Shown one piece after another: positions 868 to 41,666 of a DNA stretch of 64,000 bases (position 1 is its first letter; each line of letters opens with the position of its first letter). A program made the translations under genes and the position numbers. Origin of the DNA: Nitrososphaerota archaeon (lineage in GTDB: Archaea; Thermoproteota; Nitrososphaeria_A; Caldarchaeales; Calditenuaceae); contig JBEPYO010000001.1 in assembly GCA_041641295.1 (NCBI GenBank), positions 256,001 through 320,000 of the forward strand, read 5' to 3'. A model generated the notes under the pieces. It made no database searches and was not told the DNA's origin. It saw only the letters and a program-made list of their open reading frames with translations.

Positions 868-2190
868 TTATGAAGTGTATAGCTGAGATAGAGACTTCCT
901 CTTATCATCATTAACAAACGATATAACAGGTCTGAACTTCGCTGCGTTATTCTCGAACTCCTCTACAATCTTCAAGGTATACGGCGTGTCGGGAAACAAA
1001 ATATTACATCTTTTTTCAACTTCACTTTTAACTGCTTCTTCAGACCACCCCACGCGAGGCTTTATGTACACCTCTATGACATAATCGCTCCTCTGAACCA
1101 CCTTGAAGCGATCAAGACCCTCAATATCGTGAAAAGAGTGAAGGATGGTCAACGGAAAAACCGGAAGACCATCCCTACGTACTATTACGTCAACCATCCT
1201 CCCATGTATCTTGCCTAAAAGGGGAAGACCCCTACCACATGAACATTCATCATCGAGCAAAGTTACAATATCTCCTAAGAGATATCGTATAAACGGAGTA
1301 GTATATCTATACAGCGAAGTGACACATATCTCACCCTCTTCACCCGGAGATACGGGATGACCGTCTCTGAGCACCTCCACAAACACCGTCTCCGCGTTTA
1401 TGTGATAGCCTTCACGAGCCGGACACTCCCAAGCAATGCTCCCAACTTCAGCAGCTCCATAGTTATCATAGACTTCAGCCTGAAAGAAATCGCTAACAGC
1501 TTTCCTAACGCGAGCAGTGAGAACTTCTCCTGATGATCTAACTATCCTGAATGCAGGTCGCCGGTCAATTTTTTCACAGTAATCCATCAGCGCTACTAGA
1601 TACGATGGAGGGGCGAATAAAATTTGAGGCTTCCATTTTTCAATAACCTCCAAATGAGCGTCGATTTGTGATGTAAGTGGGATTGGACGTGCCCTTCCCT
1701 TTCTGATAAATCCGTAGAACCTCTTCCTTTCAGCAAGCAGATAAAATTGTTGCTCTCCACCTACTGAAACGGGCCTCAACTGACAAACCTTATCAGTGAA
1801 CCTAGCACCCTGCGCCAGGATGGATCTTATTCGGAGCGCCTCGAAAATCGCTACCTCTCTCGAATCTTGTACTATTTTGAATGGCATACCGCTTGAGCCT
1901 GATGTGTATATTACATGGTGTTTTTTAGATATGATCCCTCGCAAAACTCGGCTTTCAAGTGGGACATTTCTTAAATCCTCTTTTGTCACAAATGGCAACT
2001 TCTCAAGAACTATAGGCTTATTTAATTCCACGCCAGCCCTAGAATATAGTTCCTTATAAAAAGCCACATTTCTGTAGGCATGTAGAATTACTTCGCGCAG
2101 TTTCTTAGATTGAATTTTAGAAATCTTCTGCCCATCAAACCATTGAGACCGTTGCAACGAAATAAAATTTTTTATGACGCTGACAAGCAT
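868..2190 (-). CDS. Phenylacetate-CoA ligase (PaaK/CapK-like) adenylate-forming family protein
   Basis: Motifs TSGSSG, DNYGAAE, RYLLGD, CSCGR and GR..D. The gene is visibly AT-richer than its neighbours. Confidence 0.85.
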   Translation of the reverse strand: MLVSVIKNFISLQRSQWFDGQKISKIQSKKLREVILHAYRNVAFYKELYSRAGVELNKPIVLEKLPFVTKEDLRNVPLESRVLRGIISKKHHVIYTSGSSGMPFKIVQDSREVAIFEALRIRSILAQGARFTDKVCQLRPVSVGGEQQFYLLAERKRFYGFIRKGRARPIPLTSQIDAHLEVIEKWKPQILFAPPSYLVALMDYCEKIDRRPAFRIVRSSGEVLTARVRKAVSDFFQAEVYDNYGAAEVGSIAWECPAREGYHINAETVFVEVLRDGHPVSPGEEGEICVTSLYRYTTPFIRYLLGDIVTLLDDECSCGRGLPLLGKIHGRMVDVIVRRDGLPVFPLTILHSFHDIEGLDRFKVVQRSDYVIEVYIKPRVGWSEEAVKSEVEKRCNILFPDTPYTLKIVEEFENNAAKFRPVISFVNDDKRKSLSQLYTS

Positions 2191-2191
2191 G

Positions 2192-2209
2192 ATGCTTTCA
2201 ATAAAGCAT
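2192..2209. promoter_or_regulatory. Perfect inverted repeat ATGCTTT-caat-AAAGCAT, candidate operator of the PaaK-like gene
   Basis: Read directly. It lies between the start codon (2190) and a TATA-like element at about 2216-2225. Confidence 0.4.
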
Positions 2210-2382
2210 ATTACGTATATAATTTTTTACTTAAACTTTGCACACCGCATGGGTAAAACGGCTGAGACTTATAGTTTTGTGCCTCCCCCTGCATTCTGAC
2301 TTGGCGCTGCTCTCAAATCATAGATAAAAGGGGGAGATCCGTCCACTACGAGTTGTCTATAAACTGTGTCTCTTTTGGATTT

Positions 2383-3549
2383 TTATAGTGTTGCTTTCTC
2401 TGTTTTGAGCCTCTTTATGCCGAGTTCGGATATTATTTTGTCGAGCTCGTCCTCTTCTCTCGTGGTGGCTTGGAGAGGCTCGGTGGCCTCCTTCTTTGGT
2501 GGTAGGTCTTGCGCTGGCTCGCGTTTGAAGAAGCGTTCGTCTATGGTTTGTACGGATGCCTCCATCTCTCTGATGTAGCTCTCGGTCTCCAGCCCTGCGA
2601 GTATGAGGGATACCTGGATAGTCGAGTTGTAGTAGTTGTCGACCCTTGCCCCCCAGACTATTAGGCCGTCGTCTCCCATTAGCTCGTATATTATTTCAGG
2701 GGGCCTAGAGGCTTCTTTCAGCTTCATGTCTTCTCCGCCCGTAACATGGACTATTGCGGCGGATACCCCCTCTAAACCTACGCTGCCCTCAAAGAGTGGT
2801 GATTGGAGGGCGTTGAATGTGGCTTCTTCAGCCCTGTTGGGCGAGCTGCTCCTGCCTATACCGAGTGTCGCGAGGCGGCCCCTCGATACTACAGTTTTGA
2901 AGTCCTCGAAGTCGATGTTTATGAGGCTTGGCTTCACTATTGACTCCGTTATGCTCAGTATCATGTTGTTGATTACTTCGTCTGCGAGGGCGAAGGCGGT
3001 CTTCAAGTTGTACTGGGGGTAAAGTTCTAGCAGCCTGTTGTTGTCTACCACGACGACCGTGTTCACGTACTGCTGAAGCTCTGAGAGGCCTCTTAGGGCG
3101 ATCCTCTTTCTAACTCCTCCCTCAAACCTGAAGGGCATTGTGACGACGCCAACGACTATGGCTCCAAGCTCTCTCGCGACCCTAGCACAGACGGGTGCTG
3201 CGCCGGTTCCAGTTCCCCCGCCAAGTCCGGCGGCAATAAATACTAGGTCAGAACCCTCCAAGGCTTTTCTAATCTCTTCTATGCTTTCTTCGGCCGCTAG
3301 CCTCCCTACCTCCGGGTTTCCACCTGCGCCGTGGTCTCTAGTCGTCTTCGGGCCTAGGAGGATTTTGTGATGCGCGTTTACTGTGTCTAAGTGCTGCCTA
3401 TCAGTGTTTGCGGCTATCGCCGTCGCCCCATAGAGCCCGGAGGAGACGAGCCTGTGGACAGTGTTGCTTCCAGCACCGCCTAAGCCTATTAGCTTGATCT
3501 TGACGCCGAAACCATCCTCATATCCTGCCGAAGCCTCTTGGCTACTCAC
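2383..3549 (-). CDS. ftsZ: Cell division GTPase FtsZ
   Basis: GLGGAG, NTD, GAGGNP, the GGGTGTG tubulin signature, PFRFEG, T7 loop INIDFED, and a disordered C-terminal tail. Confidence 0.97.
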   Translation of the reverse strand: MSSQEASAGYEDGFGVKIKLIGLGGAGSNTVHRLVSSGLYGATAIAANTDRQHLDTVNAHHKILLGPKTTRDHGAGGNPEVGRLAAEESIEEIRKALEGSDLVFIAAGLGGGTGTGAAPVCARVARELGAIVVGVVTMPFRFEGGVRKRIALRGLSELQQYVNTVVVVDNNRLLELYPQYNLKTAFALADEVINNMILSITESIVKPSLINIDFEDFKTVVSRGRLATLGIGRSSSPNRAEEATFNALQSPLFEGSVGLEGVSAAIVHVTGGEDMKLKEASRPPEIIYELMGDDGLIVWGARVDNYYNSTIQVSLILAGLETESYIREMEASVQTIDERFFKREPAQDLPPKKEATEPLQATTREEDELDKIISELGIKRLKTEKATL

Positions 3550-3688
3550 TCGACCTAGCCTCCTCCTTTATGAAGTCGCGGACCGCCATGCGGATAGCCT
3601 CAGCCCTGTTCGGGTATAGCCGTCTCTTAACCAGCTCATCTATAGCTTCAAGGTATGCTTCAGGAAGGTGAACAGTCACAACCTTCAC
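3542..3688 (-). CDS. CdrS-like ribbon-helix-helix (CopG/MetJ) regulator, 48 aa, not in the ORF track
   Basis: Hand translation from GTG 3688: MKVVTVHLPEAYLEAIDELVKRRLYPNRAEAIRMAVRDFIKEEARSSE. The 3' end overlaps the ftsZ start. Confidence 0.9.
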   Translation of the reverse strand: MKVVTVHLPEAYLEAIDELVKRRLYPNRAEAIRMAVRDFIKEEARSSE

Positions 3689-3846
3689 TCCACCACACCT
3701 CGGAGAGGCATCTGAAAGTGAATCTCAAATAAAGCTTCGTAATACGGTGATTAATATCGCGTGATGACCCTCCACCGAAAAAAGGGGATTTCTGTTGCAG
3801 AAAATGATAATATTAAATAGGTGAGGCGGATACATTTTGTCGGATA

Positions 3847-4218
3847 ATGAAGATTTTGAGGGGGCGCGAAGACGAGGAAATCGATGAGATTGTCAGGTAC
3901 ATCAATGAAGAGTGTGATAGGGGTGCTGGCATACTGGTTGAGGGTGTAAGCGATCGGGAGGCTCTTCTTATGAGGGGTGTTAAGGGTAGGATTTTCACCC
4001 TTCACGAACTCTATAGGGCTGTGAAAAATGATTTGGGTGGTTTGAGGCTGATAACTTTGCTGGACTTGGATAGGGAGGGTGAAAGTATTTTAAGACGGCT
4101 GGAGGAGAGGTTCTCTAATCTTCTAAGACTGGACCATAGTGCGAGGTTGAGGTTGAGGAAGACGCTGAAATACAAGAGAGGACTGAGAACCATACATCAG
4201 ATATTTATGTCCCCGTAG
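3847..4218 (+). CDS. Small Toprim-domain protein
   Basis: LVEG..D and LLDLDREG (DxD) Toprim motifs. Confidence 0.8.
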   Translation: MKILRGREDEEIDEIVRYINEECDRGAGILVEGVSDREALLMRGVKGRIFTLHELYRAVKNDLGGLRLITLLDLDREGESILRRLEERFSNLLRLDHSARLRLRKTLKYKRGLRTIHQIFMSP

Positions 4219-4232
4219 ATAACTCGGCTCTG

Positions 4233-6578
4233 GTGTCGGAGACTATTAAGCTTGAGCCGAAGTTGAGGGAGACGCGGTGGGAGCCCAAGCTGGAGGAGGA
4301 GCTTCTCGCGAAATGGGATTCTGAGAAACTCTACGCCTTCAGGAAGGATTCGAGGAGGAGGTTATTCCTGATCGATACTCCTCCACCATATCCTTCAGGG
4401 AGGCCTTGGCACATAGGAGCTGCAGCTCACTATACCCAGATCGACATGATAGCGAGGACGGCCCGGATGATGGGGTATGAAGTCTACTTCCCAATCGGTA
4501 TCGATAGGAACGGGATACCGGTGGAGAGGTTTGTGGAGCGCGAGATGAAGATTAGGCTGACTAGCCTTCCTAGGGAGGAGTTCTTACGCATCTGCTCCCA
4601 GACTCTGGACGAGCTTGAGGCAGAGATGCTCTGGATCATGTGGAGGGCAGGCCTCTCGGGGGACTTCAAAAACAGGTATAGGACAGACTCTGAGGAGTAT
4701 AGGTCCCTCACACAGGCCACTTTCATCGAGCTATTTAGAAAGGGGCTGATTTACAGGGCGTCTAGGCCGAACAACTTCTGCCCTGACTGTGGGACAACTA
4801 TAGCAGACGCGGAGGTGGACTATGCCGAGATGCCGACAGACCTCGTCTACATGCGCTTCGACCTAAAAGATGGTGGAGAGATTGTCGTGGCCAGCACCCG
4901 GCCAGAACTCCTGGGAGCGTGCAGGGCAGTCATCTACAACCCCTCAGACGAGAGGTACCAGCACCTAGAGGGTCGAAGCGCGGTTGTCCCCATCTATGGC
5001 AGGGAGGTTCCAATAATTGCTCACAGCGCTGCGAGACCCGAGTTCGGTACAGGACTTGTAATGGTCTGCAGCTATGGGGACAGGACGGATGTCATGCTCT
5101 TCCGAGAACTGGGCCTTGAAGAGGTCATATTAATAGGATTGGATGGCCGCATGCTTGAGACTGCAGGGCCGCTTAGAGGGCTGACTGTCGAGGAAGCAAG
5201 ACGTAGGATTGTCGAGCTGTTGTCTAGTGAAGGCAGAGTCGTAAAAATTGAGAAGATAATGCACCAAGTACCGATATGTGAGCGGTCGAACACACCCATA
5301 GAGATCATCCCCATGGAGGAGTATTATCTGACACAGTTGAGCTTGAGGGAAGAGCTACTCGAGGCCGGTTCGAGGATGACCTTTTATCCAGAGTTCCATA
5401 GACAGCTACTCGTCGACTGGATAAACTCCCTGAAATTTGACTGGCCAATCTCTAGGCGGAGGTACTACGCGACCGAGATACCTATCTGGTATTGTAAGTC
5501 TTGCGGCTGGCCAAACCTCCCACCGCCAGGCAAATACTACCGCCCCTGGAAGGAGAGCCCACCCTTCAGCAAGTGCGAGAAGTGTGGTGCCGGAGAGTTC
5601 GTAGGAGAGGAGAGAACCCTCGACACGTGGGTCGACTCTAGCATTTCTCCCCTATTCATCTCGGGATACATGAGGGATGAGAGGCTCTTCCGCCGCGCAT
5701 ACCCAGTAGCTATCAGGCCTCAGGGGAAGGACATTGTGAGGACTTGGCTGTACTACACCCTCCTCAGATGCTATCAGCTGACAGGGAAGCCGCCCTTCAA
5801 GGGTGTCTGGGTCAGCGGAATGGGGCTTGACGAGAAAGGTGAGAAGATGAGTAAGAGTAAGGGAAACGTGATTGACCCCCGTCCAATACTCGAGAAGTAT
5901 GGAGCCGACATCTTCAGGTTCTGGTGTGCGCAGGAGGCGAGCCTCGGTTACGACTTCAGGATCTCAGAGGCGCGGATACAGTCCGCAGGCAAATTCTTAA
6001 CTAAGCTCTGGAACGTTGCTAGGTATGTCTCACAGTTTCCCCAGCCTCGGGGAGCGAAGCTGCTGCCCTCCGACAGGTGGATCCTCTCAGAGCTATCGGC
6101 TCTAATTGAAGAGGCATTGGAGGGCTACAGGGAGTACAACTTTTTCATCCCTGCCACGAAGGTTAGAAACTTTCTCTGGAACCTCTTCGCCAGCCACTAT
6201 GTGGAGATGACGAAGATGAGGGCTCTCGGCAGGTCGTCGGACAAGCAGGGCGCAAGGGCTGCATGGTACACTCTACACACCGTGCTAAAGTCCTGCCTAC
6301 TGCTCCTTGCGCCTATAACGCCGTTCGTGACAGACTATATCTGGCGGACCCTATACTCCGAGAGGTCCATACACTTGGAAAGGTTCCCGAAGCCTAGGTG
6401 GGACAAATCTTACACAAAGTATACCGAGCCGCTGGTTTCCTTTAACAGTGATGTCTGGCGTCGGAAGAAGGAGATGAACCTATCTTTGAGGGACCCAATA
6501 AGGATTAGCGTGCCCGAAGAACTCGCGCCCTTCAAGGAAGACCTTGTTGCAATGCACAACATAGTAGAAGTGGGATAA
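4233..6578 (+). CDS. valS: Valyl-tRNA synthetase
   Basis: IDTPPPYPSG, HIGA (HIGH-like), DWPISRRR, QGKDI and KMSKS. Confidence 0.95.
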   Translation: MSETIKLEPKLRETRWEPKLEEELLAKWDSEKLYAFRKDSRRRLFLIDTPPPYPSGRPWHIGAAAHYTQIDMIARTARMMGYEVYFPIGIDRNGIPVERFVEREMKIRLTSLPREEFLRICSQTLDELEAEMLWIMWRAGLSGDFKNRYRTDSEEYRSLTQATFIELFRKGLIYRASRPNNFCPDCGTTIADAEVDYAEMPTDLVYMRFDLKDGGEIVVASTRPELLGACRAVIYNPSDERYQHLEGRSAVVPIYGREVPIIAHSAARPEFGTGLVMVCSYGDRTDVMLFRELGLEEVILIGLDGRMLETAGPLRGLTVEEARRRIVELLSSEGRVVKIEKIMHQVPICERSNTPIEIIPMEEYYLTQLSLREELLEAGSRMTFYPEFHRQLLVDWINSLKFDWPISRRRYYATEIPIWYCKSCGWPNLPPPGKYYRPWKESPPFSKCEKCGAGEFVGEERTLDTWVDSSISPLFISGYMRDERLFRRAYPVAIRPQGKDIVRTWLYYTLLRCYQLTGKPPFKGVWVSGMGLDEKGEKMSKSKGNVIDPRPILEKYGADIFRFWCAQEASLGYDFRISEARIQSAGKFLTKLWNVARYVSQFPQPRGAKLLPSDRWILSELSALIEEALEGYREYNFFIPATKVRNFLWNLFASHYVEMTKMRALGRSSDKQGARAAWYTLHTVLKSCLLLLAPITPFVTDYIWRTLYSERSIHLERFPKPRWDKSYTKYTEPLVSFNSDVWRRKKEMNLSLRDPIRISVPEELAPFKEDLVAMHNIVEVG

Positions 6579-6636: not shown

Positions 6637-6724
6637 AATAATGAGGCTCTGGACCGTTGATTATATCTTTTGTCGCACTCACCGTTATACAGTTAAATGA
6701 GGCGACGTGGGCTGGGCCTTGGCG

Positions 6725-7111
6725 ATGGCTAGGTATGTGAGGGATAGGTCGCTTGAGGAGTATGTTAAGGAGATTGGGTCTCGTGCTGGGCTCGTCTATC
6801 TCGACTACACGAGGATTAAATGTGTGAGGAGCTATGAGACAAGGTCTAGGAGTATAGCCGCTCGCGTCCACTCAGGGAGTAGGGCGCTCTGGACAGGCCT
6901 CGGACTCAGCCCCCACTACGTGATCGAGTTCGTCTCAGAGATTTTTGACAGACTGTCGAGTGAAGAGAAGGTGGAGGTCATACTTCACGAGCTACTTCAC
7001 ATCCCGAGGACGATGGGGGGCGGGTTGATCAGCCATGGCAGACTAGACTTTAGGGGAGAGGTCAAGAGGCTTTCCAGGAGGCTTAGGGGTCTTCAAGACC
7101 TTAATCGGTGA
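6725..7111 (+). CDS. Small putative zinc metallopeptidase (HExxH)
   Basis: ILHELLHIP motif. ATG 6725 is preferred to GTG 6707. Confidence 0.75.
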   Translation: MARYVRDRSLEEYVKEIGSRAGLVYLDYTRIKCVRSYETRSRSIAARVHSGSRALWTGLGLSPHYVIEFVSEIFDRLSSEEKVEVILHELLHIPRTMGGGLISHGRLDFRGEVKRLSRRLRGLQDLNR

Positions 7112-7763
7112 TTCCGAGGACGGTGCAGGGTGCGCTGTCGACCTCTTCTAAAAGCAGTGGGGCCAAGATGACGTACCTGTAGGCAGCCGGTTTGCCTGCT
7201 AGGTCCATATCCTCAACTATTAGGAACCGGTTGTCTGAGAGAAGTATTCTGTGGCTTTCTCGCCCCTCGCTTCTCCGTAAAGGCGTGGAGACGCTGATTG
7301 CGTCTATTCCGATACCCCTGAGGTTTGGGAACGAGTCTTTGAGGAACTTGGCTGCTGACGGCGAGAATAGGAGGCCCTTGGAGGAATATGCATCCGGGTC
7401 CGTGTCCCTATAGGATTGGAGGCCGGTCCGTATTAGGAGCAGGCTACAGGACTCGATGATGTGACTGTATGGCTTCAAGTCCTCGGCCAAGACTTCTCCA
7501 CCGGGCTGCTTCGGGACATCAATCAGCCGGACGTTCTCAAAGAGGAGCTCCTCCGCCGCGTACTCGGATATTTTTCGGCCATTCTTGTAGAAGTGGTTTG
7601 GCGCATCGACGTGTGTGCCGGTGTGATTGGCCATGCTGATGACCCAGAGGTTGCTCGAGTCTCCACGCTCTATGCTTCTATAATGTGTGAGCTGTATAGG
7701 GGGTGTTCCGGGGTAGAGTGGGGTACTTCTCCCCACCCTGTGTGAGAGTAGGACGAGCCTCAA
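7101..7763 (-). CDS. Cyclase/kynurenine formamidase-family metallohydrolase
   Basis: HTGTHVDAPNHF, LIRTG, GIDAIS and H..LL.....VE motifs. Confidence 0.9.
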   Translation of the reverse strand: MRLVLLSHRVGRSTPLYPGTPPIQLTHYRSIERGDSSNLWVISMANHTGTHVDAPNHFYKNGRKISEYAAEELLFENVRLIDVPKQPGGEVLAEDLKPYSHIIESCSLLLIRTGLQSYRDTDPDAYSSKGLLFSPSAAKFLKDSFPNLRGIGIDAISVSTPLRRSEGRESHRILLSDNRFLIVEDMDLAGKPAAYRYVILAPLLLEEVDSAPCTVLGITD

Positions 7764-7854
7764 AGACTTTCCACCTGCCCACCTCTACCCTCATGTATTT
7801 TGTTTAATTACTCTGCCGCTCCAAGCGGATTATAGATATATTGGGCATGGGAGA

Positions 7855-8901
7855 GTGTATCCCCGGATGAGGGGTATAAGCCTCGGCTACTGGGTAGCAC
7901 AGGAGCAATATCCGCCCGACAGGCTGATGGAGTTCGCAATACACGCCTCAATCGTGGGCTTTGACACCATAGTAACCAGCGACCACTTCCACCCCTGGAG
8001 GGACAAAGGAGGCCACTCAGCACACCCCTGGATATGGATGACGGCGGTTGCGGAGAGGTTGAAGGGTGTTGAGGTTGGGACCGCCGTCACCACCCCTCTT
8101 TTCAGGTATCATCCCGCCATCGTGGCCCAGGCCTTCGCAACTCTTGACTACATGTATCCTGGCCGCATCTTTCTAACAGTGGGCACCGGGCACGCCATGA
8201 ATGAAGTACCCCTAGGGTTTCAGTGGCCGAGCTATAAGGAGAAGGTTGAGAGGCTGAAGGAGGCGGTTGAGATAATTCAGCTCCTCTGGCGCGGAGACTT
8301 TGTTGACTACGAGGGGAAATACTACCGCCTAGTAAAGGCTAAGCTATACACCAAGCCGAAGAAGAATATCAAACTATACATCGCCACAGCGGATAGAAAG
8401 GTGGCTGAGATAGCCGGGCAATACGCCGACGGGATACTCACGAATCCCCGGGGGCTTGAGAACTATGATTTGATAGTGAAAGCACTTGAAGAGGGGGCTA
8501 AGAAGGCGGGAAAAGACATCTCAACTCTCAGCAAGTGTATGGAGTTTAAAGTCTCTTACGACCCAGACTATGGAAAGGCGCTGGAAGGCGCCCTGTTCTG
8601 GGCCCCCACAGCTATTCCTAGGGAGAAGAGGGAGAGGGTTGCAGACCCGCGGGAACTTGAGGCGATGGTAGGCGAGAGCGAGGTTGAGAAGATTAAGAAG
8701 ACTTGGCTAATAACAAGTGATCCAGACGACATCTACAAGGCACTCGGAGAATTCCTCAAGCTTGGCTTCGACAGGGTATTCATCCACAGCTCCTCACCCG
8801 ATGAGGAGAAGTTCCTAAACCTGCTGGGCAGGGAGATACTGCCCTGGGTGAGAGAGTACTACGAGAGCCTCCGGATACCCATAAGAATCACATCAGAGTG
8901 A
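7855..8901 (+). CDS. F420-dependent glucose-6-phosphate dehydrogenase-like LLM oxidoreductase (Fgd family)
   Basis: EQY.P, SDHFHPW, RYHPAIVAQAFAT, GTG.AMNE, EFKVSYDPD and FWAP match recalled mycobacterial Fgd. Alternative start ATG 7867. Confidence 0.85.
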   Translation: MYPRMRGISLGYWVAQEQYPPDRLMEFAIHASIVGFDTIVTSDHFHPWRDKGGHSAHPWIWMTAVAERLKGVEVGTAVTTPLFRYHPAIVAQAFATLDYMYPGRIFLTVGTGHAMNEVPLGFQWPSYKEKVERLKEAVEIIQLLWRGDFVDYEGKYYRLVKAKLYTKPKKNIKLYIATADRKVAEIAGQYADGILTNPRGLENYDLIVKALEEGAKKAGKDISTLSKCMEFKVSYDPDYGKALEGALFWAPTAIPREKRERVADPRELEAMVGESEVEKIKKTWLITSDPDDIYKALGEFLKLGFDRVFIHSSSPDEEKFLNLLGREILPWVREYYESLRIPIRITSE

Positions 8902-8907
8902 GCCCTC

Positions 8908-9261
8908 ATGAGTATAATCTTCTATGGCTACAAGCGGTGTAAGACGAGCCGGGAGGTTGAAAGGGCCCTAACCTCGCAGGGGCTGAGCCTTAATTTTATA
9001 GACATAGTCAAGAATCCTCCTGATAAGAAAGTTCTGAAAGAGCTTGTGGAGAAGTATGGTGTTGAGGGTGTTGTTAGGGTCGGTAAGTCTGAGGCGAGGA
9101 AAGCCCTAGAGAAGGAGGGTCTAGAGAGGTTTCTGGAAAAGCTGAGGCTCGAGCCTAAGAGGCTTATACGCCCCGTCGTCATCGCGGGAGATGAGGTCTA
9201 CGCTGGTAGGGATGCCTTAAAGATAGTAGGCCATCCCCGAGAAAGGAGGGTGGCTCATTAG
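8908..9261 (+). CDS. ArsC/Spx-family thioredoxin-fold protein
   Basis: N-terminal CKTSR, IDIVKNPP and P.RLIRPVV. Confidence 0.8.
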   Translation: MSIIFYGYKRCKTSREVERALTSQGLSLNFIDIVKNPPDKKVLKELVEKYGVEGVVRVGKSEARKALEKEGLERFLEKLRLEPKRLIRPVVIAGDEVYAGRDALKIVGHPRERRVAH

Positions 9262-9264
9262 GGA

Positions 9265-10665
9265 ATGAATGGACTCGATGTAGGAGTTTACGGCCTGGGC
9301 GTGATGGGTGAGGCGTTCGCCCTCAACCTCGAGAGCAGAGGCCTCACCGTAGCCGTCTACAACAGGACTGCCGAGAAAACAACACAGTTTCTCCAAGGCA
9401 AAGCCAAGGGAAAGAGGATACAGGGCTTCACCGATCTCAAGGAGTTTGTAGATTCCCTCTCAAGGCCTAGGATGATCGTTTTATTCGTGAAGGCTGGGAA
9501 GCCGGTTGACGAGGTGGTCGAGACCTTAACACACATGCTTGAGAAGGGCGACATCATCATTGACTGTGGCAACTCTCATTACAGGGACTCTGACAGGAGA
9601 TTCGCCGAGCTTAGCGGCAGGGGTATAAGATTTCTGGGAGTGGGTGTGAGTGGTGGCGAGGAGGGAGCGTTAAAGGGCCCCTCCATGATGTTCGGAGGAG
9701 ATTTCTCCGCCTACATCGAGGCCGAGAATAAGATAGGGCGCGCCGCAGCTGTCTTCGAGAACTCCAAGTGCGTCAGCTACTTCGGCGAGGGCGGGGCCGG
9801 ACACTTCGTCAAGATTGTACACAACGGGATTGAATATGCTATAATGCAGGCGATAGCCGAGGTCTACGACTATCTCTTGAGGGGTGTAGGCCTATCGAGC
9901 GGGGAGGTGGGCTCGGTCTTTGAGGAGTGGGGGAAGGGCGTGCTCCGCTCATTTCTACTTGAGGCGGCGGCCAGGGTTCTCAGATACATCGACCCTGAAA
10001 CTGGCAAGCCACTGGTCGAGCTAATCCTAGATGAGGCTGAGCAGAAGGGTACAGGCAGGTGGGCGGTCGAGGCCGCCATGGAGCTGGGAGTCTCAGCCCC
10101 CACCATAGCCGCCGCAGTGGATGAGAGGACCCTCACGACCCTCCGTACACTCAGGAGGCCCGCGCAGGAAGCTGGATTTAACGGGGATAGGAATGTGGGA
10201 GAGGCCGTGGAAGCGGCTAAGAACTCGCTACTCGCCACCACACTCCTCTCCTATATCCAAGGCATATCACTCCTCCAGGCTGGGGCGCGGAACTATGGCT
10301 TCAGGGTTTCAGAGGCCCTCAGAGTATGGCGGGCAGGCTGCATAATAAGGTCCAGAATCGTTGAGGAGCTCTACAAGGAGCTTTCATGGACCCCTGGCGA
10401 GCCTACGGCTGTTGCTTTCGATAAAATCATACCCCAGCTTGAGGAGCTGATGCCCCAATGGCTCCAATTCATCACAAACGCATCTAGGATGAGAATCCCC
10501 ACCCCAGCCTCCATGAGCGCCCTCTCATACTACCTCTCCCTAAGGTCAGATAGGCTGCCCGCAAACCTGATACAGGGAATCAGAGACTATTTCGGCGGAC
10601 ACATGTTCAAAAGAGTGGACAGGGAGGGCTACTTCCACTCAGACTGGGGACGCAGCAGTGAGTGA
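9265..10665 (+). CDS. gnd: NADP-dependent 6-phosphogluconate dehydrogenase (decarboxylating, long form)
   Basis: GLGVMG, YNRT, SGGEEGA, GHFVKIVHNGIEY, QKGTG, WRAGCIIRS and RDYFG.H. Confidence 0.95.
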   Translation: MNGLDVGVYGLGVMGEAFALNLESRGLTVAVYNRTAEKTTQFLQGKAKGKRIQGFTDLKEFVDSLSRPRMIVLFVKAGKPVDEVVETLTHMLEKGDIIIDCGNSHYRDSDRRFAELSGRGIRFLGVGVSGGEEGALKGPSMMFGGDFSAYIEAENKIGRAAAVFENSKCVSYFGEGGAGHFVKIVHNGIEYAIMQAIAEVYDYLLRGVGLSSGEVGSVFEEWGKGVLRSFLLEAAARVLRYIDPETGKPLVELILDEAEQKGTGRWAVEAAMELGVSAPTIAAAVDERTLTTLRTLRRPAQEAGFNGDRNVGEAVEAAKNSLLATTLLSYIQGISLLQAGARNYGFRVSEALRVWRAGCIIRSRIVEELYKELSWTPGEPTAVAFDKIIPQLEELMPQWLQFITNASRMRIPTPASMSALSYYLSLRSDRLPANLIQGIRDYFGGHMFKRVDREGYFHSDWGRSSE

Positions 10666-10671
10666 TAAGGG

Positions 10672-11682
10672 ATGGAGTATTGGATCCCGTGGGGCAGCAC
10701 CGAGGTCTTCTTCGAAGCCCCACCCGAACTATCAGTCACAACCCCCAGTCCAACCCCTCTAACCTACGAAGAAGTATTATCTAGAGTCTCAGCCATACCT
10801 GACACGCCCTGTGTATTCATCGACTACCTTCCTACACCCACCGCTTATAAAACACTGCTCGCGAGGTTGGCTGAGACTTGTAAGATCGCCTACGTCTCAT
10901 CTTGGCGACTTGGGATTGAGAGAGTAGGCGAGGCTGTCGCAGAGCTTGAGAGCTTGGAGAAGAAGCCTCCACTCGCGCCGTTGAAGGAGTTCGCAGATGA
11001 AACTTCAAACCTAGAATCAGCCACCTTCATTTATCCTCTCACTTCGAGGCTGCTCCTAAGCCGAGTCGCCACAAGCACGAATGAATATCTCGCATGGCTA
11101 TTCAAAATCCACGGAATCAGCGGCCTCGATCCTTTTCGAATCAATCTCTTTCCTGTGGAGATTTCTTACAGCATCGACGGCTCGATTCACGGAATCTGGA
11201 CACAAAACCCCAGGCCAGACCATAAGCCCCCCGTGTTCGACTCGGTCATAGTCTCGCCCGGTAAGGCACCCCTAGACTCCACCCTCTACCTAGCAGCCCA
11301 GTCCATCATCCTCTCATCATCGGCCTGCGGGGATGAGACGACAATACTCGCGGTCTCAGAGTGTAAAGAGGGGCTGGGGCCACCTGAGTTTGTACGTCAA
11401 CTCTATGAGAGCCTAAAGCCTGATCTAGAAGGCGAGCTAAGCCCTGATGCCGATCCATACAAACTCATAGCTGCGGGGCTAGCGACCGCTCTTCGAAGCT
11501 ACAGAACCTACATGGTAACCTCCCTTCCCCGCAGCCTTGCCAAGCTACTTATAGGCATCAAGACGTTCGAGACAGTGCAGGAGGGGTTTGCCCAGATACT
11601 AAGGCTTCATGGACGGGGGCACAGAATGCTGCTAGTCAGAGAAGGCCTACACATCGACCCAGGGATGGTGGCAACGGGCTAG
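10672..11682 (+). CDS. Divergent lactate racemase (LarA/DUF2088)-like protein
   Basis: N-terminal IPWG and C-terminal VIVSPG..PLD.TLY.A and ECKEGLG resemble LarA. The central part is degenerate. Confidence 0.55.
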   Translation: MEYWIPWGSTEVFFEAPPELSVTTPSPTPLTYEEVLSRVSAIPDTPCVFIDYLPTPTAYKTLLARLAETCKIAYVSSWRLGIERVGEAVAELESLEKKPPLAPLKEFADETSNLESATFIYPLTSRLLLSRVATSTNEYLAWLFKIHGISGLDPFRINLFPVEISYSIDGSIHGIWTQNPRPDHKPPVFDSVIVSPGKAPLDSTLYLAAQSIILSSSACGDETTILAVSECKEGLGPPEFVRQLYESLKPDLEGELSPDADPYKLIAAGLATALRSYRTYMVTSLPRSLAKLLIGIKTFETVQEGFAQILRLHGRGHRMLLVREGLHIDPGMVATG

Positions 11683-12803
11683 AAGCGTAGCAGTGGAGAG
11701 AGGAGTCCTAGGAGAGGCCCAGGAAGGATAACAAACGTAACAACCAGCATCAGAACTACACCTATGAATGAAATTTTTCTGAACTTTGAGAGGGGTGAAA
11801 CCATGTCCAGCGGCGCAAAATCTATCGGCGTCATCAGGAAGAAGAGTAGTAGGAGTGATAGATAGTAGTAGCCTGTCAAGAATAATATTCCGACCGAGAT
11901 GAAGGAGAGTAGCCTGTAACGCTTGAAGCTTGTGAGGCTTCTGAATATCCTACCTCCGTCCAGCTGCCAAACGGGCAGGAGGTTCAGGCTGGTCACCACC
12001 ATTCCTAGCCATGCGGCGAATCCCACAGCGGGGAATATGGGGACGAGATTGCCTGGTGAGAAAATGTTGTTGGCTAGGTTGAAGATGAGGGGGGAGGGTA
12101 GGAGGGAGACCTCGCCCCGCCGGACCAGCTCCTCGACAACCCTCCTCTCAACCCACTCAGCCTGCTGGAATGCAAACACCATAACGACCAGGCTCGCAAG
12201 AAAACCGGCTATGGGCCCACTTACACCCAAGTCAAACAAGTCGTCCCTATTCCGTATCGGCCCACGCTGGAATATTATAGCCCCGAACGTCGGCATGACA
12301 CCGGGAATGCCCGGTATAAAATAGGGCAAGCTGGAATCGATCCTATCTTGCCACGCAGAGATCTTGTGCCCAAGCTCGTGTATTCCTATTATTGAGAGGA
12401 CGCCGACAGTGTAGGCGACCGCCTCCCAAAATCTGGGCCCGGCTGGGAAGGCACCAATCCCACCCGACCTTATCACACCATCTATGAATACCGTGAAGAC
12501 AGTGATGATAAATAGGACTAGCGGCCACCTGCTCCTACGCCTCTCCGGTGCGGTGTAGGGATAGACCTTTAACAATACTTCACCCTCGATATCTTGGGCG
12601 ACGGGGACAAAGCCTATGCGGGAAAGCTCCGAGTATATTTTCTTGAAGCTTTCCTTAATTTCCCTCGTCATTATCTTGAATGTCAAGACACCTTCAACAT
12701 AGACTGCCTCGCGGACAGGAAGGTGTGCTCTAACTATGTTGTTAATTGCTTCGAGCCTATCTCCGTAGGATTCAGGGCCGAGTATCAAGTCGTTTATTGA
12801 CAC
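11679..12803 (-). CDS. Site-2 protease (M50 family)
   Basis: HELGH, GPIAG, NLLP..QLDGG and multiple TM helices. Confidence 0.92.
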   Translation of the reverse strand: MSINDLILGPESYGDRLEAINNIVRAHLPVREAVYVEGVLTFKIMTREIKESFKKIYSELSRIGFVPVAQDIEGEVLLKVYPYTAPERRRSRWPLVLFIITVFTVFIDGVIRSGGIGAFPAGPRFWEAVAYTVGVLSIIGIHELGHKISAWQDRIDSSLPYFIPGIPGVMPTFGAIIFQRGPIRNRDDLFDLGVSGPIAGFLASLVVMVFAFQQAEWVERRVVEELVRRGEVSLLPSPLIFNLANNIFSPGNLVPIFPAVGFAAWLGMVVTSLNLLPVWQLDGGRIFRSLTSFKRYRLLSFISVGILFLTGYYYLSLLLLFFLMTPIDFAPLDMVSPLSKFRKISFIGVVLMLVVTFVILPGPLLGLLSPLLRF

Positions 12804-19212: not shown

Positions 19213-19284
19213 CCCCGCCGCCATCCTCCAGAGGCGATATTGTTTTTAGTTCGGGGAGATGTTAGCGATATCTGGGTCGATGGC

Positions 19285-20028
19285 TTGATCCAGATCATCC
19301 CTGTTGAGGGGATGAAAATTATAGCGCCGGGGGATAGGCTGGGGGTTGAGATTGTAAATGCTTTAGCGGGGCGCGGGATTCGGCCGGTTGATGGAGACAT
19401 AGTCGTGGTTAGTCATGTGGTGGTTGCAAAGGCGGAGGGCAGAATATACCGGCTCTCAGAGATAACGCCCAGCCCCCAAGCAATAGAGCTGGCCCGCATC
19501 ACTAACAAGGACCCAGCACACATAGAGGTCATTCTGAGAGAGGCGAAAAGAATAGTCAGGGTCAGGGGCGAGGTCTTGATCACCGAGACTAGACACGGCT
19601 TGATATGCGCGAACAGCGGAGTAGACCTCTCAAATGTAGGCGAGGGGTGGGCGGCTACACTACCCGAGGACCCTGACGCCTCTGCAAGAAGAATCAGGAA
19701 AGAAATCGAGGAAGCTACTGGCGCGAAGGTTGCGGTGATAATTTGTGACTCGCATGGCAGACCGTTTAGACGCGGAGCAGTGAACATCGCGATAGGTTGC
19801 AGCGGCATCGAGCCGATATGGGATAGGCGCGGAGAGCCCGACCTCTTCGGCCGCATACTCAGGAGTAAGCAGATCTGCGTAGCGGATGAGCTGGCTTCTG
19901 CAGCTGAGCTGGCCATGGGGCAGGCGGGTGAGGGAATACCTGCCGTACTCATACGCGGATACAAGTATAAGACAGGTGAGACGGGAGCCTCTCAAATAAT
20001 TAGGCCCAAGGAGGAGAGCCTATTCTAG
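19285..20028 (+). CDS. cofE: Coenzyme F420-0:L-glutamate ligase
   Basis: VVAKAEG, CANSGVD.SN, LPEDPD.SA, DSHGRPFR.G and ADELASAA. TTG 19285 gives MIQIIPVEG; the track start is 19240. Confidence 0.93.
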   Translation: MIQIIPVEGMKIIAPGDRLGVEIVNALAGRGIRPVDGDIVVVSHVVVAKAEGRIYRLSEITPSPQAIELARITNKDPAHIEVILREAKRIVRVRGEVLITETRHGLICANSGVDLSNVGEGWAATLPEDPDASARRIRKEIEEATGAKVAVIICDSHGRPFRRGAVNIAIGCSGIEPIWDRRGEPDLFGRILRSKQICVADELASAAELAMGQAGEGIPAVLIRGYKYKTGETGASQIIRPKEESLF

Positions 20029-24669: not shown

Positions 24670-25575
24670 GTGAAGTTAGAAGGGTTCAAGGGTGTAATAG
24701 CCGCGATCATTACCCCTAACGGCGTCGAAGATGCGGATATCGAGGCATATCTGAGGTTTCTACATGAGAGGGGTGTGGGCGGGATATTCGTGCTGGGGAC
24801 GATGGGTGAGGGCGCGAAGCTCTCAGTCCAAGCTAGGGAGAACGCGGCTAAAAAGATCGTCTCTCTCGCAGGGGACAGATTCTTAAAAATAGTTCACGTG
24901 GGCTCTTCAGACTTGGAATCATCCTTGAGACTCGCTAAACACGCGCAAGAAATCGGGGCCGATGCCGTCTCCGCCGTCGCACCATACTATTACAGGTATG
25001 ATGCGGAATCCCTAGCAAATTTCTACACGGCTCTCGGATCCTCCACAAATCTACCAGTACTATTCTACAACAACCCCGGCAGGCAGGCCTACCCGATAAG
25101 TCTTCAGGAGATTGCGAGGCTTTTCGAGCTGGCCCCAGCTGTACGAGGCGTCAAGGATAGCAGTGGAGACCCTGACCTGATTCTTGAGCTCCAGTCCAGC
25201 TTCGGGTCCAGCCACTTCATAGCATGTGGTGGAGACAACCTCCTCTACTACGCTTTCTCGATCGGCATCAGGGCCCACGTGAGCGCCTTAGCATCCATCT
25301 ATCCGGAGCTGGCCGTGGGTGTCTTTAGGGCGGTTGCGCGTGGAGACCGCGAAGAAGCGCTGAGGCTTCAGCTGGCCGTTAACAGGGCTAGGCGGTTGTT
25401 GAGGAGCGTAGGGCCGGACACGGCATCCTACCGCTACGCACTCACACTGAGAGGCTTAAACATGGGTCCACCCATACCGCCCACGAGGCATCTACGACAG
25501 GAGGAGATGGAGCAACTGTCCCGGGGGCTCGCTCCCATTAACAAGTTGGCGGAGGATGTGGCTAGACTTGGCTGA
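24670..25575 (+). CDS. DHDPS/KD(P)G aldolase family protein
   Basis: GTMGEG, APYYY, YNNP and GVKDSSG (Schiff-base Lys). Adjacent to the KDG kinase. Confidence 0.85.
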   Translation: MKLEGFKGVIAAIITPNGVEDADIEAYLRFLHERGVGGIFVLGTMGEGAKLSVQARENAAKKIVSLAGDRFLKIVHVGSSDLESSLRLAKHAQEIGADAVSAVAPYYYRYDAESLANFYTALGSSTNLPVLFYNNPGRQAYPISLQEIARLFELAPAVRGVKDSSGDPDLILELQSSFGSSHFIACGGDNLLYYAFSIGIRAHVSALASIYPELAVGVFRAVARGDREEALRLQLAVNRARRLLRSVGPDTASYRYALTLRGLNMGPPIPPTRHLRQEEMEQLSRGLAPINKLAEDVARLG

Positions 25576-26521
25576 GCTAGTCGCGATGGGGGAGGCCCTC
25601 ATACAGTTTAACGCCCTCACCAAGGGACCGCTTAGACACGTTACTTTGTTTGAGAAGCACGTTGCAGGAGCAGAGGCGAACGTGGCGGTCTGCGTGAGCA
25701 GGCTGGGAAGGAGCTCAGCCTTCATCGGAAGAGTAGGTGATGACGAGTTCGGCAGGAACATCGAGGCCTGGCTGAGGGCTGAGAAGGTCGATACGAGGTG
25801 GCTTAAGACGGATCCCAGCGCGCCGACTGGAATCTACTTTGTGCAGCGAGGATACCCAATACCGGCAAGAAGTACCATGTTTTATTACAGGCGCGGCTCT
25901 GCCGGGAGCAGGCTCTCGCCGGAAGACGTCGAGGAGGAGGCGTTTAAAGACTCGAGAATATTTCACTTCACTGGAATCACACCTGCGCTGAGCCAGTCGG
26001 CGAGGGAGGCGTGCCTCAAGGCCCTGCAGCTGGCGGAGAAAAACGGTGTCCAAGTCTCCATAGACACCAATATCCGTCCAGCCTTGTGGCCCAGCCTAGA
26101 GGAAGCTGCTAGGGTTTTGATGCCAATGATTGAGAAGGCGAACATTCTTTTCACAGACCCGACAGACGCCGAGATTCTGGTGGGTGAGAGCGAGCCCGAG
26201 AAGATATTGGAGGTCTTTAGAAGCCTCGGCATAGAGACTGTAGTGGTAAAGCTGGGGGAGAGGGGGGCTGTTGCCGCATCTGGAAGTGAGAAGGCTCGTG
26301 CCGAGGCAGTCCAAGTCAACGTAGAAGACCCCATAGGCGCTGGAGACGGGTTGGCTGGGACGTTCCTAGCATGCTTGCTGGCGGGCCGAAACCTGTTCGA
26401 ATCCTTGAGAAGGGCCACTCTTGTCGGCTCACTAGTCACTACCGTGAGAGGTGACCAAGAGATGATTCCCATACTCAAGGACCTTGAGGCCGTCTACCGA
26501 TACTACTATCCCTATCCCTGA
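25556..26521 (+). CDS. kdgK: 2-keto-3-deoxygluconate kinase (PfkB family)
   Basis: AGAEANVA, YYRRGSAGS, TGITPALS, D.NIRP.LW and DPIGAGD. Confidence 0.85.
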   Translation: MWLDLAELVAMGEALIQFNALTKGPLRHVTLFEKHVAGAEANVAVCVSRLGRSSAFIGRVGDDEFGRNIEAWLRAEKVDTRWLKTDPSAPTGIYFVQRGYPIPARSTMFYYRRGSAGSRLSPEDVEEEAFKDSRIFHFTGITPALSQSAREACLKALQLAEKNGVQVSIDTNIRPALWPSLEEAARVLMPMIEKANILFTDPTDAEILVGESEPEKILEVFRSLGIETVVVKLGERGAVAASGSEKARAEAVQVNVEDPIGAGDGLAGTFLACLLAGRNLFESLRRATLVGSLVTTVRGDQEMIPILKDLEAVYRYYYPYP

Positions 26522-41111: not shown

Positions 41112-41147
41112 AAAAATTTAATACACAGCCCAACCAGAAAATAGAAC

Positions 41148-41666
41148 GTGGCGTTAACATCAGTTACAAATGTAATACGGACCAAGCTAGACGTGCGAAA
41201 CTTCTCACCTAAAGATGTGCCGTGGGAGGATAAGATCAGCATACTTGATGCGGGTAGGATGGCAGGGTCTGGCATGAACAGCCAGCACTGGCGCTTCATA
41301 CTCCTAGATAAGCGCGAGGACCTCCAGAAGCTCGCAGACCTAAGCATTACGGGTAAATGGGTGAGTGGCGCAAACTTTGCTGTAGTAGTTCTTACCGATT
41401 CGAGATACGCTTGGCACCTCCTCGACGCCGGGCGGGCTATAACAAATATGATGCTAGAGGCTTGGAGCCGGGGCATAGTCTCATGCATCTGTACAGGCTA
41501 TAACGAGGAAGCCCTGAGGAATTGGCTGAAGATTCCTCCTAACTATGCTATTGCGGGGTTCGTCGGATTCGGCTATCCCGTGAAGAGGATTATAGGCAGG
41601 AAGAATAGATTACCTCTGGAGCAGATTGCCTATTATGGACGGTTCGGAGAGCCACTCAAGAAGTAA
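41148..41666 (+). CDS. Nitroreductase family protein
   Basis: R.F, A.S..N.Q.W.F, DAG...NMML.A...G..SC and GYP. Confidence 0.88.
   Translation: MALTSVTNVIRTKLDVRNFSPKDVPWEDKISILDAGRMAGSGMNSQHWRFILLDKREDLQKLADLSITGKWVSGANFAVVVLTDSRYAWHLLDAGRAITNMMLEAWSRGIVSCICTGYNEEALRNWLKIPPNYAIAGFVGFGYPVKRIIGRKNRLPLEQIAYYGRFGEPLKK

Follow-up and report, generated by a model that had tools for sequence, protein, structure and literature searches.

An FGD-like LLM dehydrogenase and its genomic partners in Caldarchaeales: candidates for an F420-linked oxidative pentose phosphate pathway

The stretch of DNA analyzed here, referred to throughout as the window, comprises 64,000 nucleotides (G000:C1:256001-320000) of an archaeal genome, G000, which is 1.56 Mb in size, is assembled in 5 contigs, and is 93.8% complete. 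Four co-oriented genes within it encode, in order, an enzyme of the luciferase-like monooxygenase (LLM) family, a small ArsC-like protein, the decarboxylating 6-phosphogluconate dehydrogenase Gnd, and a LarA_C-like protein, and a gene for a cyclase-family hydrolase diverges from the first of them (Table 1). An earlier reading of the window, the original prediction, described these genes as a tightly packed unit (3–6 nt gaps) for an F420-linked oxidative pentose phosphate pathway (PPP) and noted the hydrolase as divergent. The coordinates and families agree with that description; the open reading frame (ORF) listing gives gaps of 6, 3, and 6 nt. The LLM enzyme is probably a hexose-6-phosphate dehydrogenase that reduces F420 and feeds Gnd.

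Table 1. Features of the LLM-Gnd locus and other genes of the window discussed in the text (window positions).
Feature	Coordinates	Strand	Remarks
Cyclase-family (PF04199) metal-dependent hydrolase	7101-7763	-	220 aa, divergent from LLM gene
Divergent spacer	7764-7854		91 nt, between cyclase and LLM genes
FGD-like LLM dehydrogenase	7855-8901	+	348 aa, TIGR03557 family
ArsC/Spx/glutaredoxin-like small thioredoxin-fold protein	8908-9261	+	117 aa, weak matches below cut-off
Gnd, decarboxylating 6-phosphogluconate dehydrogenase, long NADP type	9265-10665	+	466 aa
LarA_C-like protein	10672-11682	+	336 aa, partial LarA_C match
M50-family membrane metallopeptidase	11679-12803	-	374 aa, PF02163 59 bits
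cofE (F420-0:gamma-glutamyl ligase)	19240-20028	+	TIGR01916 289.6 bits, PF01996 259.9 bits
DHDPS-family aldolase	24670-25575		dapA 132 bits vs KDG aldolase 130.7 bits
PfkB 2-keto-3-deoxygluconate (KDG) kinase	25556-26521		NF040938 382.4 bits, cut-off 400
ROK-family sugar kinase	31721-32695	-	PF00480 176.8 bits; NF045551 191 bits

The LLM protein matches PF00296 at 168 bits and exceeds the cut-off of the TIGR03557 subfamily (236.6 vs 210.4 bits), and its close homologs bear NCBI names that match this family. Its best NCBIfam model is TIGR03554, the equivalog model of the glucose-6-phosphate dehydrogenase that depends on F420 (FGD; EC 1.1.98.2), at 314 bits. The best PDB matches are likewise FGDs, Rh-FGD1 (5lxe, 304 bits) and Mycobacterium tuberculosis (Mtb) FGD1 (3b4y, 295 bits), followed by Adf (1rhc, 253 bits). 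G000 encodes three LLM paralogs with 40–43% identity to the window LLM, which is the most FGD-like of the four (TIGR03554, 313.8 vs 274.6, 261.1, and 250.7 bits). Other members of its clade score 266–297 bits against the same model, and 29 of the 38 bacterial LLM loci scanned pass the TIGR03554 cut-off.

Gnd, predicted to be a long NADP-type enzyme, exceeds the cut-offs of both NF006765 (524.4 bits, cut-off 413) and TIGR00873 (497 bits, cut-off 426.7). It is a full-length two-domain protein (PF03446 and PF00393) whose best PDB match, 2w8z, extends at 407 bits over residues 5-461. The Rossmann motif is followed by 'YNRT', a putative site for the 2'-phosphate of NADP.

The distribution of the two genes was assessed in a census of the class, covering 76 genomes from one order and four families; these genomes are related, and the counts do not represent independent events. 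At a threshold of at least 67% identity, 40 genomes have an LLM ortholog, and 45 have Gnd. The two co-occur in 39 genomes; a single genome has the LLM ortholog without Gnd, 6 have Gnd without the ortholog, and 30 lack both. A distance of no more than 1.4 kb separates the two genes in 18 genomes (all 8 of genus g1, to which G000 belongs, 2/2 of g2, 1/1 of g4, and 7/7 of g14). The linkage spans four genera and two families and is therefore not a peculiarity of this genome, a point on which the original prediction had been prepared to fall. Among 72 loci from other lineages with less than 50% identity, Gnd lies less than 7 kb from the LLM gene in one; because this baseline compares with 18/40 genomes (distance within 1.4 kb) for the clade of the window LLM in its own class, the linkage is more than chance. 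Outside the class, eight loci labelled Bathyarchaeia, Conexivisphaerales, or Thermoproteota carry LLMs that are 63–72% identical, and Gnd is encoded in 5 of the 6 genomes there that have an LLM-clade ortholog.

The cyclase-family gene is a more constant neighbor, with an ortholog less than 600 nt from the LLM ortholog in 29/40 genomes and less than 5 kb away in 33/40. Outside the class it adjoins the LLM gene in 1/8 orthologous loci. Its product is a clear member of PF04199 (85.5 bits), with 1r61/3krv, kynurenine formamidases, and isatin hydrolase as PDB relatives; the metal-binding stretch HxGTHxDxPxH and a later His and Glu align with KynB and 1r61. The pairing recurs with LLM paralogs. In G000, a second divergent pair (L024, G000:C1:346000-352500) consists of a cyclase gene at 1673-2542 (-) and the LLM paralog L003 at 2613-3617 (+). 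L003 retains Glu109 of FGD, and its residues in the K259 and R283 columns are Lys and Arg; it could represent a further dehydrogenase of sugars or sugar phosphates, paired with a hydrolase of its own. Family f3 has no Gnd, no cofD, and no ortholog of the window LLM; there, locus L108 (G038:C8:40500-51500) contains a KDPG/KHG aldolase gene (3772-4458, +), a cyclase gene (4514-5233, +), and the gene for an FGD-like LLM with 48% identity to the window LLM (5214-6215, -), which is convergent with the cyclase gene and overlaps it. This arrangement hints at an Entner-Doudoroff-type use of the dehydrogenase-hydrolase pair.

Since the LLM-cyclase pairing recurs with paralogs and beside enzymes for acids of the 6-phosphogluconate type, the hydrolase is proposed as a candidate 6-phosphogluconolactonase. 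We hold this assignment tentatively, with somewhat more doubt than confidence. A Pgl-type 6-phosphogluconolactonase (PF01182) was not found in G000; here and below, an absence from this incomplete genome means that the gene was not found with the model given. The candidate lies outside the Pgl family. To our knowledge, no PF04199 member is known as a lactonase, and a literature search of limited coverage for PF04199 lactonases or the missing archaeal 6-phosphogluconolactonase found nothing relevant, which does not establish absence from print. Isatin hydrolase opens a ring amide, a reaction chemically close to the opening of a lactone.

Another conserved partner lies outside the window. A protein of 385 aa with two sugar isomerase (SIS) domains, referred to here as the double-SIS protein, is encoded tail-to-tail beside the LLM ortholog in 27/40 genomes, and its gene adjoins the LLM gene in 6/8 orthologous loci from other lineages. 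It is present in 17 of 18 f2 genomes and is not adjacent to the LLM gene in g1 or g3; in G000 it is found at C1:534352-535506. The C-terminal half resembles 6-phospho-3-hexuloisomerase (PHI), with 74–90 bits against TIGR03127 (cut-off 160) and PDB matches to 9lj9, 1vim, and 1jeo; the N-terminal half matched no family at the sequence level. An AlphaFold model built from 40 sequences (pLDDT 88.7, pTM 0.90) gave full-length Foldseek matches to the GlmS isomerase domain, NagB-II, PH0510, and putative tagatose-6-phosphate isomerases (E 1e-10 to 1e-11, TM 0.5–0.6). The double-SIS architecture is predicted from these full-length matches of the model to double-SIS hexose-6-phosphate isomerase/deaminase domains. 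An internal duplication was also sought with hhalign by comparing the N-terminal with the C-terminal half; the match was not significant (probability 0.2%), though the motifs are in register.

The LLM, Gnd, cyclase, and double-SIS genes share one phyletic profile, namely f1, f2, and g14. The cyclase and double-SIS genes are the more strongly conserved partners of the LLM gene, and both had been passed over, the former seen only as 'divergent' and the latter lying beyond the window.

The genome content of G000 was then considered for sugar phosphate metabolism. Zwf, HPS (3-hexulose-6-phosphate synthase), and Transketolase_N were not found in G000, and RpiA is present above its cut-off. HPS, searched with TIGR03128 at E <= 1e-10, occurs in 15/76 genomes of the class: f1 0/19, f2 0/18, f3 4/4, g11 2/3, g12 3/3, g14 4/7, g13 0/8, and g15 2/14. 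Its distribution is therefore largely complementary to the LLM-bearing families f1 and f2, and g14 has both. A ribulose monophosphate (RuMP) route is listed for Caldiarchaeum (Nunoura 2011). Given HPS in 0/18 genomes of f2, the RuMP annotations in this group may rest on the PHI-like double-SIS gene.

F420 genes are also present. As originally predicted, the window contains cofE, which exceeds its TIGR01916 cut-off of 180.65 bits, and cofD and Fno were found above their cut-offs in G000. Fno occurs in 8/8 genomes of the genus. cofD is above cut-off in 43/76 genomes and tracks the LLM ortholog (f1 17/18, f2 17/18, g14 7/7), with none in f3, g11, g13, or g15.

Taken together, the gene context, in the form of Gnd, the cyclase, and the double-SIS protein, favors a hexose-6-phosphate dehydrogenase. 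We consider it probable that the LLM enzyme reduces F420 with a hexose 6-phosphate, most likely glucose 6-phosphate (G6P), as the substrate and that its product reaches Gnd. The double-SIS protein would supply the aldose 6-phosphate from fructose 6-phosphate. The LLM enzyme would then oxidize G6P to 6-phosphogluconolactone, with reduction of F420, and the lactone would be opened to 6-phosphogluconate, a step for which the cyclase-family hydrolase is the candidate. The adjacent NADP-type Gnd would decarboxylate 6-phosphogluconate to ribulose 5-phosphate, and RpiA would convert this to ribose 5-phosphate. F420H2 could be passed to NADP+ by Fno. Because HPS and transketolase were not found, the lineage appears to rely on this route for the synthesis of its pentose phosphates.

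A number of observations weigh against such a role, and several of them concern the LLM enzyme itself. Its TIGR03554 score falls short of the equivalog cut-off of 420 bits, and on sequence criteria the protein is a member of the TIGR03557 family and not a certified FGD. Active-site residues were read from an L-INS-i alignment of 84 rows (17 from the LLM clade and 67 others) and from a pairwise alignment to 3B4Y. In Mtb FGD numbering, we take the catalytic residues to be His40, Trp44, and Glu109. The equivalents of His40 and Trp44 are kept as H44 and W48 in 17/17 clade rows. The equivalent of Glu109, however, is His113 in 17/17 clade rows; His occurs at this position in 0/67 other rows, and 62 of these have Glu.

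The phosphate pocket, judged from the alignments, appears to be kept only in part by the clade. Its residues Lys198, Lys259, and Arg283 are reported to be strictly conserved among active FGDs, and the R282Q mutant of Rh-FGD1 was nearly inactive (Nguyen 2017). In the LLM clade, the K198 loop (TNPRG) contains an invariant Arg (R199, 17/17 rows), and the K259 position is R259 in 17/17 rows, within an R/K-x-K-R stretch in which K/R256 is present in 17/17 and K/R258 in 16/17. The Arg283 column is occupied by Thr or Ser, with K/R281 two residues before it in 17/17 rows. The FGD-like label of the original prediction thus holds as far as the TIGR03557 family, the best model, and the comparison with the paralogs are concerned; it does not extend to the FGD equivalog or to an unaltered active site. 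At a further position, which is Gly177 in FGD, Ser175 in FSD, and Met175 in Adf (Mascotti 2018), the clade has Ser in 12/17 and Ala in 5/17 rows. Judged from the alignment, this residue is small, like that of the sugar-phosphate enzymes.

The phylogeny gives no firm placement of the enzyme with the bacterial FGDs. Two quick maximum-likelihood (ML) trees of 84 and 96 rows were built with SH-aLRT as the only support measure, and Adf and FSD sequences were not included. In both, the LLM homologs form a distinct archaeal clade of 17 rows (SH-aLRT 100). In the second tree, this clade falls in a 28-row uncharacterised archaeal group (SH-aLRT 95), which was named only after the tree was seen, and lies apart from the bacterial FGD clade. 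In that tree, in which bacterial FGDs were labelled by NCBIfam cut-off, the FGD clade (16 rows, support 100) sits in a 32-row group (support 97) together with fHMAD-like, TIGR03557-core, and FMN-revert lineages. Forcing the LLM clade and the bacterial FGDs together costs 19.3 lnL, with a p-AU of 0.19, which does not reject the two as sisters. Resolution of the backbone is poor: 31/81 and 32/92 inner branches are open in the two trees. In a PDB search with two representatives, neither was a member of the Adf cluster: P0084 matched FGD at 319 and 313 and Adf at 306, and P0137 matched Adf at 232. Five loci whose LLM frames have internal stops (L042, L064, L068, L081, and L083) were left out of the later NCBIfam scan and the second tree. 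These frames, from bacterial or archaeal loci, may be pseudogenes, assembly errors, or cases of recoding; those of L064 and L068 extend to 590 and 667 aa.

Other points against this role come from the wider genome. Gnd is unlinked from the LLM gene in g3 (0/4) and in family f2 (0/17), and it lies within 7 kb in 0/8 of the orthologous loci outside the class, so that the synteny survey called for earlier gives a linkage which holds within g1, g2, g4, and g14. FGGY kinases are encoded in 8/8 g1 genomes, none of which comes near the gluconokinase cut-off of 648.55 bits with these proteins (285.6 bits), and 6-phosphogluconate could for this reason come from gluconate. A separate PGI/PMI gene is present in G000 (L027), and the double-SIS protein is therefore not needed as a PGI. 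The supply of the cofactor is the last difficulty. The cofH model for a subunit of FO synthase (TIGR03551) gave no hit in G000 and was matched in 1/76 genomes of the class, and cofC was found neither in G000 with TIGR03552 nor among the ORFs that flank cofE. Of the full biosynthetic set (cofG/H, cofC, cofD, and cofE), G000 thus yielded cofD and cofE only; cofG was not searched. With cofH and cofC not found, the supply of F420 hinges on a proposed uptake of the deazaflavin head group. The archaea of this class may scavenge the head group or use unrecognised enzymes.

The altered active site and the uneven linkage could be explained together if the LLM enzyme were an F420 dehydrogenase for another anionic substrate, such as a sugar phosphate, phosphosugar acid, or hydroxy acid, that is made or used by the double-SIS protein. 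The link to Gnd would then be loose, and Gnd would draw its 6-phosphogluconate from elsewhere, for example from an FGGY-type kinase that phosphorylates gluconate downstream of the window's branched Entner-Doudoroff genes. The clade-wide change of Glu109 to His and the loss of the Arg283 equivalent fit such an enzyme, and the extra basic residues (R199, K/R256, K/R258, R259, and K/R281) could bind a doubly anionic substrate. The double-SIS gene is, moreover, the most widely conserved neighbor (27/40 and 6/8, vs 18/40 and 0/8 for Gnd), and the FGGY kinases, as well as the KDG kinase and aldolase of the window, are in keeping with such a supply. The sugar kinase and aldolase families named in the original prediction are indeed present, but each scores below its cut-off: the PfkB KDG kinase only just, and the DHDPS-family aldolase ambiguously, with nearly equal dapA and KDG aldolase scores. 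The ROK kinase, whose best NCBIfam model is the ATP-dependent glucokinase NF045551 (cut-off 500 bits), is possibly an ATP-dependent glucokinase; it lies ~20 kb from the cluster. Several results speak for G6P oxidation instead. The phyletic match of the LLM ortholog and Gnd is close, with few singletons on either side, and their linkage recurs in two families. Neither Zwf nor another recognised G6P dehydrogenase was found, a GntK-type gluconokinase (TIGR01313) was found in 0/8 genomes of the genus, and FGD is both the best model and the best PDB relative of the LLM enzyme. We regard a different anionic substrate as unlikely.

The gaps in F420 synthesis likewise suggest an LLM enzyme that works without F420 in vivo, using FMN, free FO, or another flavin, or else a reductase that consumes F420H2 supplied by Fno from NADPH. 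The near absence of cofH from the class and the missing cofC in G000 are consistent with either form, as is the presence of Fno with the latter. After TIGR03554, the highest NCBIfam score is that of TIGR03885, which describes the FMN 'revert' family (245.6 bits), and one FMN-revert representative (P0209) likewise departs from Glu at the Glu109 position, with Gln instead. The TIGR03885 score, however, is far below the cut-off of 398.7 bits, and both trees keep the LLM clade apart from the FMN-revert clade. The tracking of the LLM ortholog by cofD across the class and the cofE gene in the window argue for F420, and the context of Gnd, hydrolase, and isomerase fits the oxidative direction. Such an enzyme seems to us quite improbable.

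The two remaining genes of the co-oriented set bear on whether all four form one dedicated pathway operon, in which the ArsC-like and LarA-like proteins would be catalytic; one example would be a LarA-type epimerase with 6-phosphogluconate as its substrate. Among the homologs of LarA are racemases and epimerases of 2-hydroxyacids. The narrow gaps on one strand and the order kept in 8/8 genomes of the genus are in keeping with this idea, and a LarA-like gene follows Gnd in g1 (8/8), g2 (2/2), g4 (1/1), and two g3 genomes (G023 and G027). The ArsC-like protein, however, scores below the cut-offs of PF03960 (22.4 vs 24) and TIGR01617 (39.6 vs 75 bits), and its best PDB match, a putative arsenate reductase (3rdw, E 2.4e-5), fits the fold only. 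It has the motif C11-K-T-S; the gene is found in the most divergent genome of the genus too, with a CRTC motif (L022:4283-4618). A gap of ~360 nt separates the LLM gene and Gnd in 8/8 g1 genomes, with the ArsC-like gene directly checked in G000 and G033, whereas no such gene is present between them in g2, g4, or g14; the position is specific to genus g1. A role as a thiol-redox accessory is possible.

The LarA-like protein matches LarA_C (PF21113) at 27.9 bits (cut-off 25) over residues 190-250 only, and it reaches 30.8 on the LarA model NF033504, whose cut-off is 460, with no Lar_N match listed. The ArsC/Spx-like and LarA-like labels of the original prediction therefore stand as weak or partial resemblances. 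No more than 10 homologs were detected, each of them unnamed or labelled 'hypothetical', and Nitrososphaerota clusters auto-named 'putative transcriptional regulator' or LarA-like, with scores of 0.92–0.95, serve as leads only. The protein evolves fast (38–79% identity within the genus, vs 86–98% for the LLM), and no copy of its gene was detected in f2 (0/18), a family with LLM, Gnd, cyclase, and SIS genes. It overlaps a convergent M50 peptidase gene, and the same pair occurs in L010, L011, L022, and L023. In the last of these, from g14 (G057:C6:130500-137500), the pair stands beside a nitroreductase-family gene and cofD and not beside Gnd. From these matches the LarA-like protein is probably neither a nickel-pincer racemase nor a core component of the pathway, and both it and the ArsC-like gene are probably accessory or unrelated passengers. 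Because the ArsC-like gene lies between the LLM gene and Gnd only in g1 and the LarA-like gene travels with the M50 gene outside f1, the four genes are not one conserved pathway unit, as had been supposed, and a dedicated four-gene operon is very doubtful.

The hexose-6-phosphate dehydrogenase reading can be extended to a broader and more speculative proposal. An oxidative PPP of four genes (double-SIS protein, F420 dehydrogenase with His for Glu, cyclase lactonase, and Gnd) might have evolved independently in Caldarchaeales and some related TACK archaea, might in two families have taken over the supply of pentoses from the ribulose monophosphate route, and might depend on FO scavenged from neighbors. 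We put this forward as a possibility with considerable reservation. If true, nucleotide synthesis in these archaea would depend, through scavenged FO, on a cofactor shared by the community. That FO synthase is nearly absent beside cofD, cofE, and Fno in itself raises the question of cofactor dependency.

With respect to the structure of the locus, the divergent spacer holds an AT-rich, TATA-like box, TTATAGATATATT, at 7829-7841, which by its position is a candidate promoter element. The relatives of the LLM protein align only from query residue 4-8 on, and the true start is for this reason probably the ATG at 7867 (M5). On the other side of the cyclase gene, an ORF at 6707-7111 (+; 134 aa) matches PF18894, 'putative phage metallopeptidase', at 74.8 bits; it shares 11 nt with the 3' end of the cyclase gene, and its homologs also adjoin the cyclase gene in g2 and g4 (L010 and L011). 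Farther downstream, at 37120-41666 (+), genes for electron transfer flavoprotein (ETF) beta-like and alpha-like proteins and an ETF-QO-like FAD oxidoreductase are followed by a nitroreductase-family gene. The family scan found an archaeal gene content in the window, including PolD DP2, FtsZ, exosome, GGGP synthase, and archaeal SAM synthetase, and the names of the nearest database proteins refer to Nitrososphaerota, Aigarchaeota, Caldarchaeum, or Calditenuaceae. Elsewhere in G000, the LLM paralog L002 (L025, G000:C1:1462000-1468500) lies among two short-chain dehydrogenases/reductases (SDRs) and a GFO/IDH/MocA oxidoreductase, with an FGGY-family kinase gene ~3 kb away (C1:1468757-1470241; 285.6 bits on the gluconokinase model, below the cut-off of 648.55). 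This region may be a sugar or polyol oxidation cluster.

The closest precedent is found in the same order of archaea. For the Aigarchaeote Calditenuis aerorheumensis, a complete oxidative PPP save gluconolactonase, with a G6P dehydrogenase using F420, has been inferred from the genome (Beam 2016, PMC4681859). The hybrid route, of which the original prediction knew no archaeal description, was thus not new; the basic pathway idea is already in print at the level of annotation, with the lactonase missing there as well. The statement of Beam 2016 is itself annotation-level, and its G6P dehydrogenase is a possible ortholog of the window LLM. The available text of that paper makes no mention of the linkage, the cyclase, the double-SIS protein, changes in the active site, or missing FO synthase. 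The value of the present locus lies in its enzymology and in a refined gene set (LLM, cyclase, double-SIS, and Gnd). Added here are this gene set, a lactonase candidate, the clade-wide change of Glu to His, a distribution complementary to that of HPS, and an FO synthase that appears to be lacking.

Related observations have been made in neighboring lineages. Some Caldarchaeales metagenome-assembled genomes were described as having an 'incomplete oxidative PPP' (2023 study, PMC10547907), and up to 12 copies of K15510 were reported in Gagatemarchaeum (Sheridan 2023). Fgd is listed for 'Thaumarchaeota?', and TACK archaea are said to offer no definitive experimental evidence for F420 production or roles (Grinter and Greening 2021). 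The proteins of this locus could reveal a function of F420 in the physiology of an archaeon that is not a methanogen, could show what fills the 'missing lactonase' step of Beam 2016, and could tell whether sugar-phosphate oxidation arose more than once in the F420-dependent LLM family.

Compared with FGD, the window LLM shares the TIM-barrel fold of the family, the His40 and Trp44 equivalents, and basic residues in the K198 and K259 loops; it differs in having His for Glu109, Thr or Ser for Arg283, and Arg for K198 and K259, as well as in its archaeal host. The gene for Rh-FGD1 of Rhodococcus is flanked by putative 6-phosphogluconate dehydrogenase and G6P isomerase genes (Nguyen 2017), a neighborhood that resembles the window locus. 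Among the sampled bacterial FGD loci that pass the cut-off, however, Gnd lies less than 7 kb away in 1/29, unlike the arrangement here. FSD (Cryptosporangium arvum, Nocardioidaceae) and Adf belong to the same dehydrogenase subfamily, and the FSDs are bacterial and keep the phosphate residues of FGD (Mascotti 2018). By the Ser or Ala at the Gly177/Ser175/Met175 position, the LLM clade resembles FSD rather than Adf, although Adf (1RHC) is the third-best PDB match.

The partners of the LLM enzyme can be compared in the same way. The cyclase-family hydrolase shares its metal-binding motif with KynB and isatin hydrolase and is unrelated to Pgl, and the double-SIS protein resembles PHI in its C-terminal half, below the cut-off, with no HPS partner found in f1 or f2. 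Outside haloarchaea, pentose phosphate synthesis in archaea is known mainly from genome annotation. In Haloferax volcanii, the oxidative PPP consists of an SDR-type, NAD-dependent G6P dehydrogenase and GndA, and it supplies ribulose 5-phosphate. The pathway proposed here likewise ends in a 6-phosphogluconate dehydrogenase, but its first enzyme would be an F420-type LLM in place of the unrelated NAD-type SDR, and its Gnd is of the NADP type.

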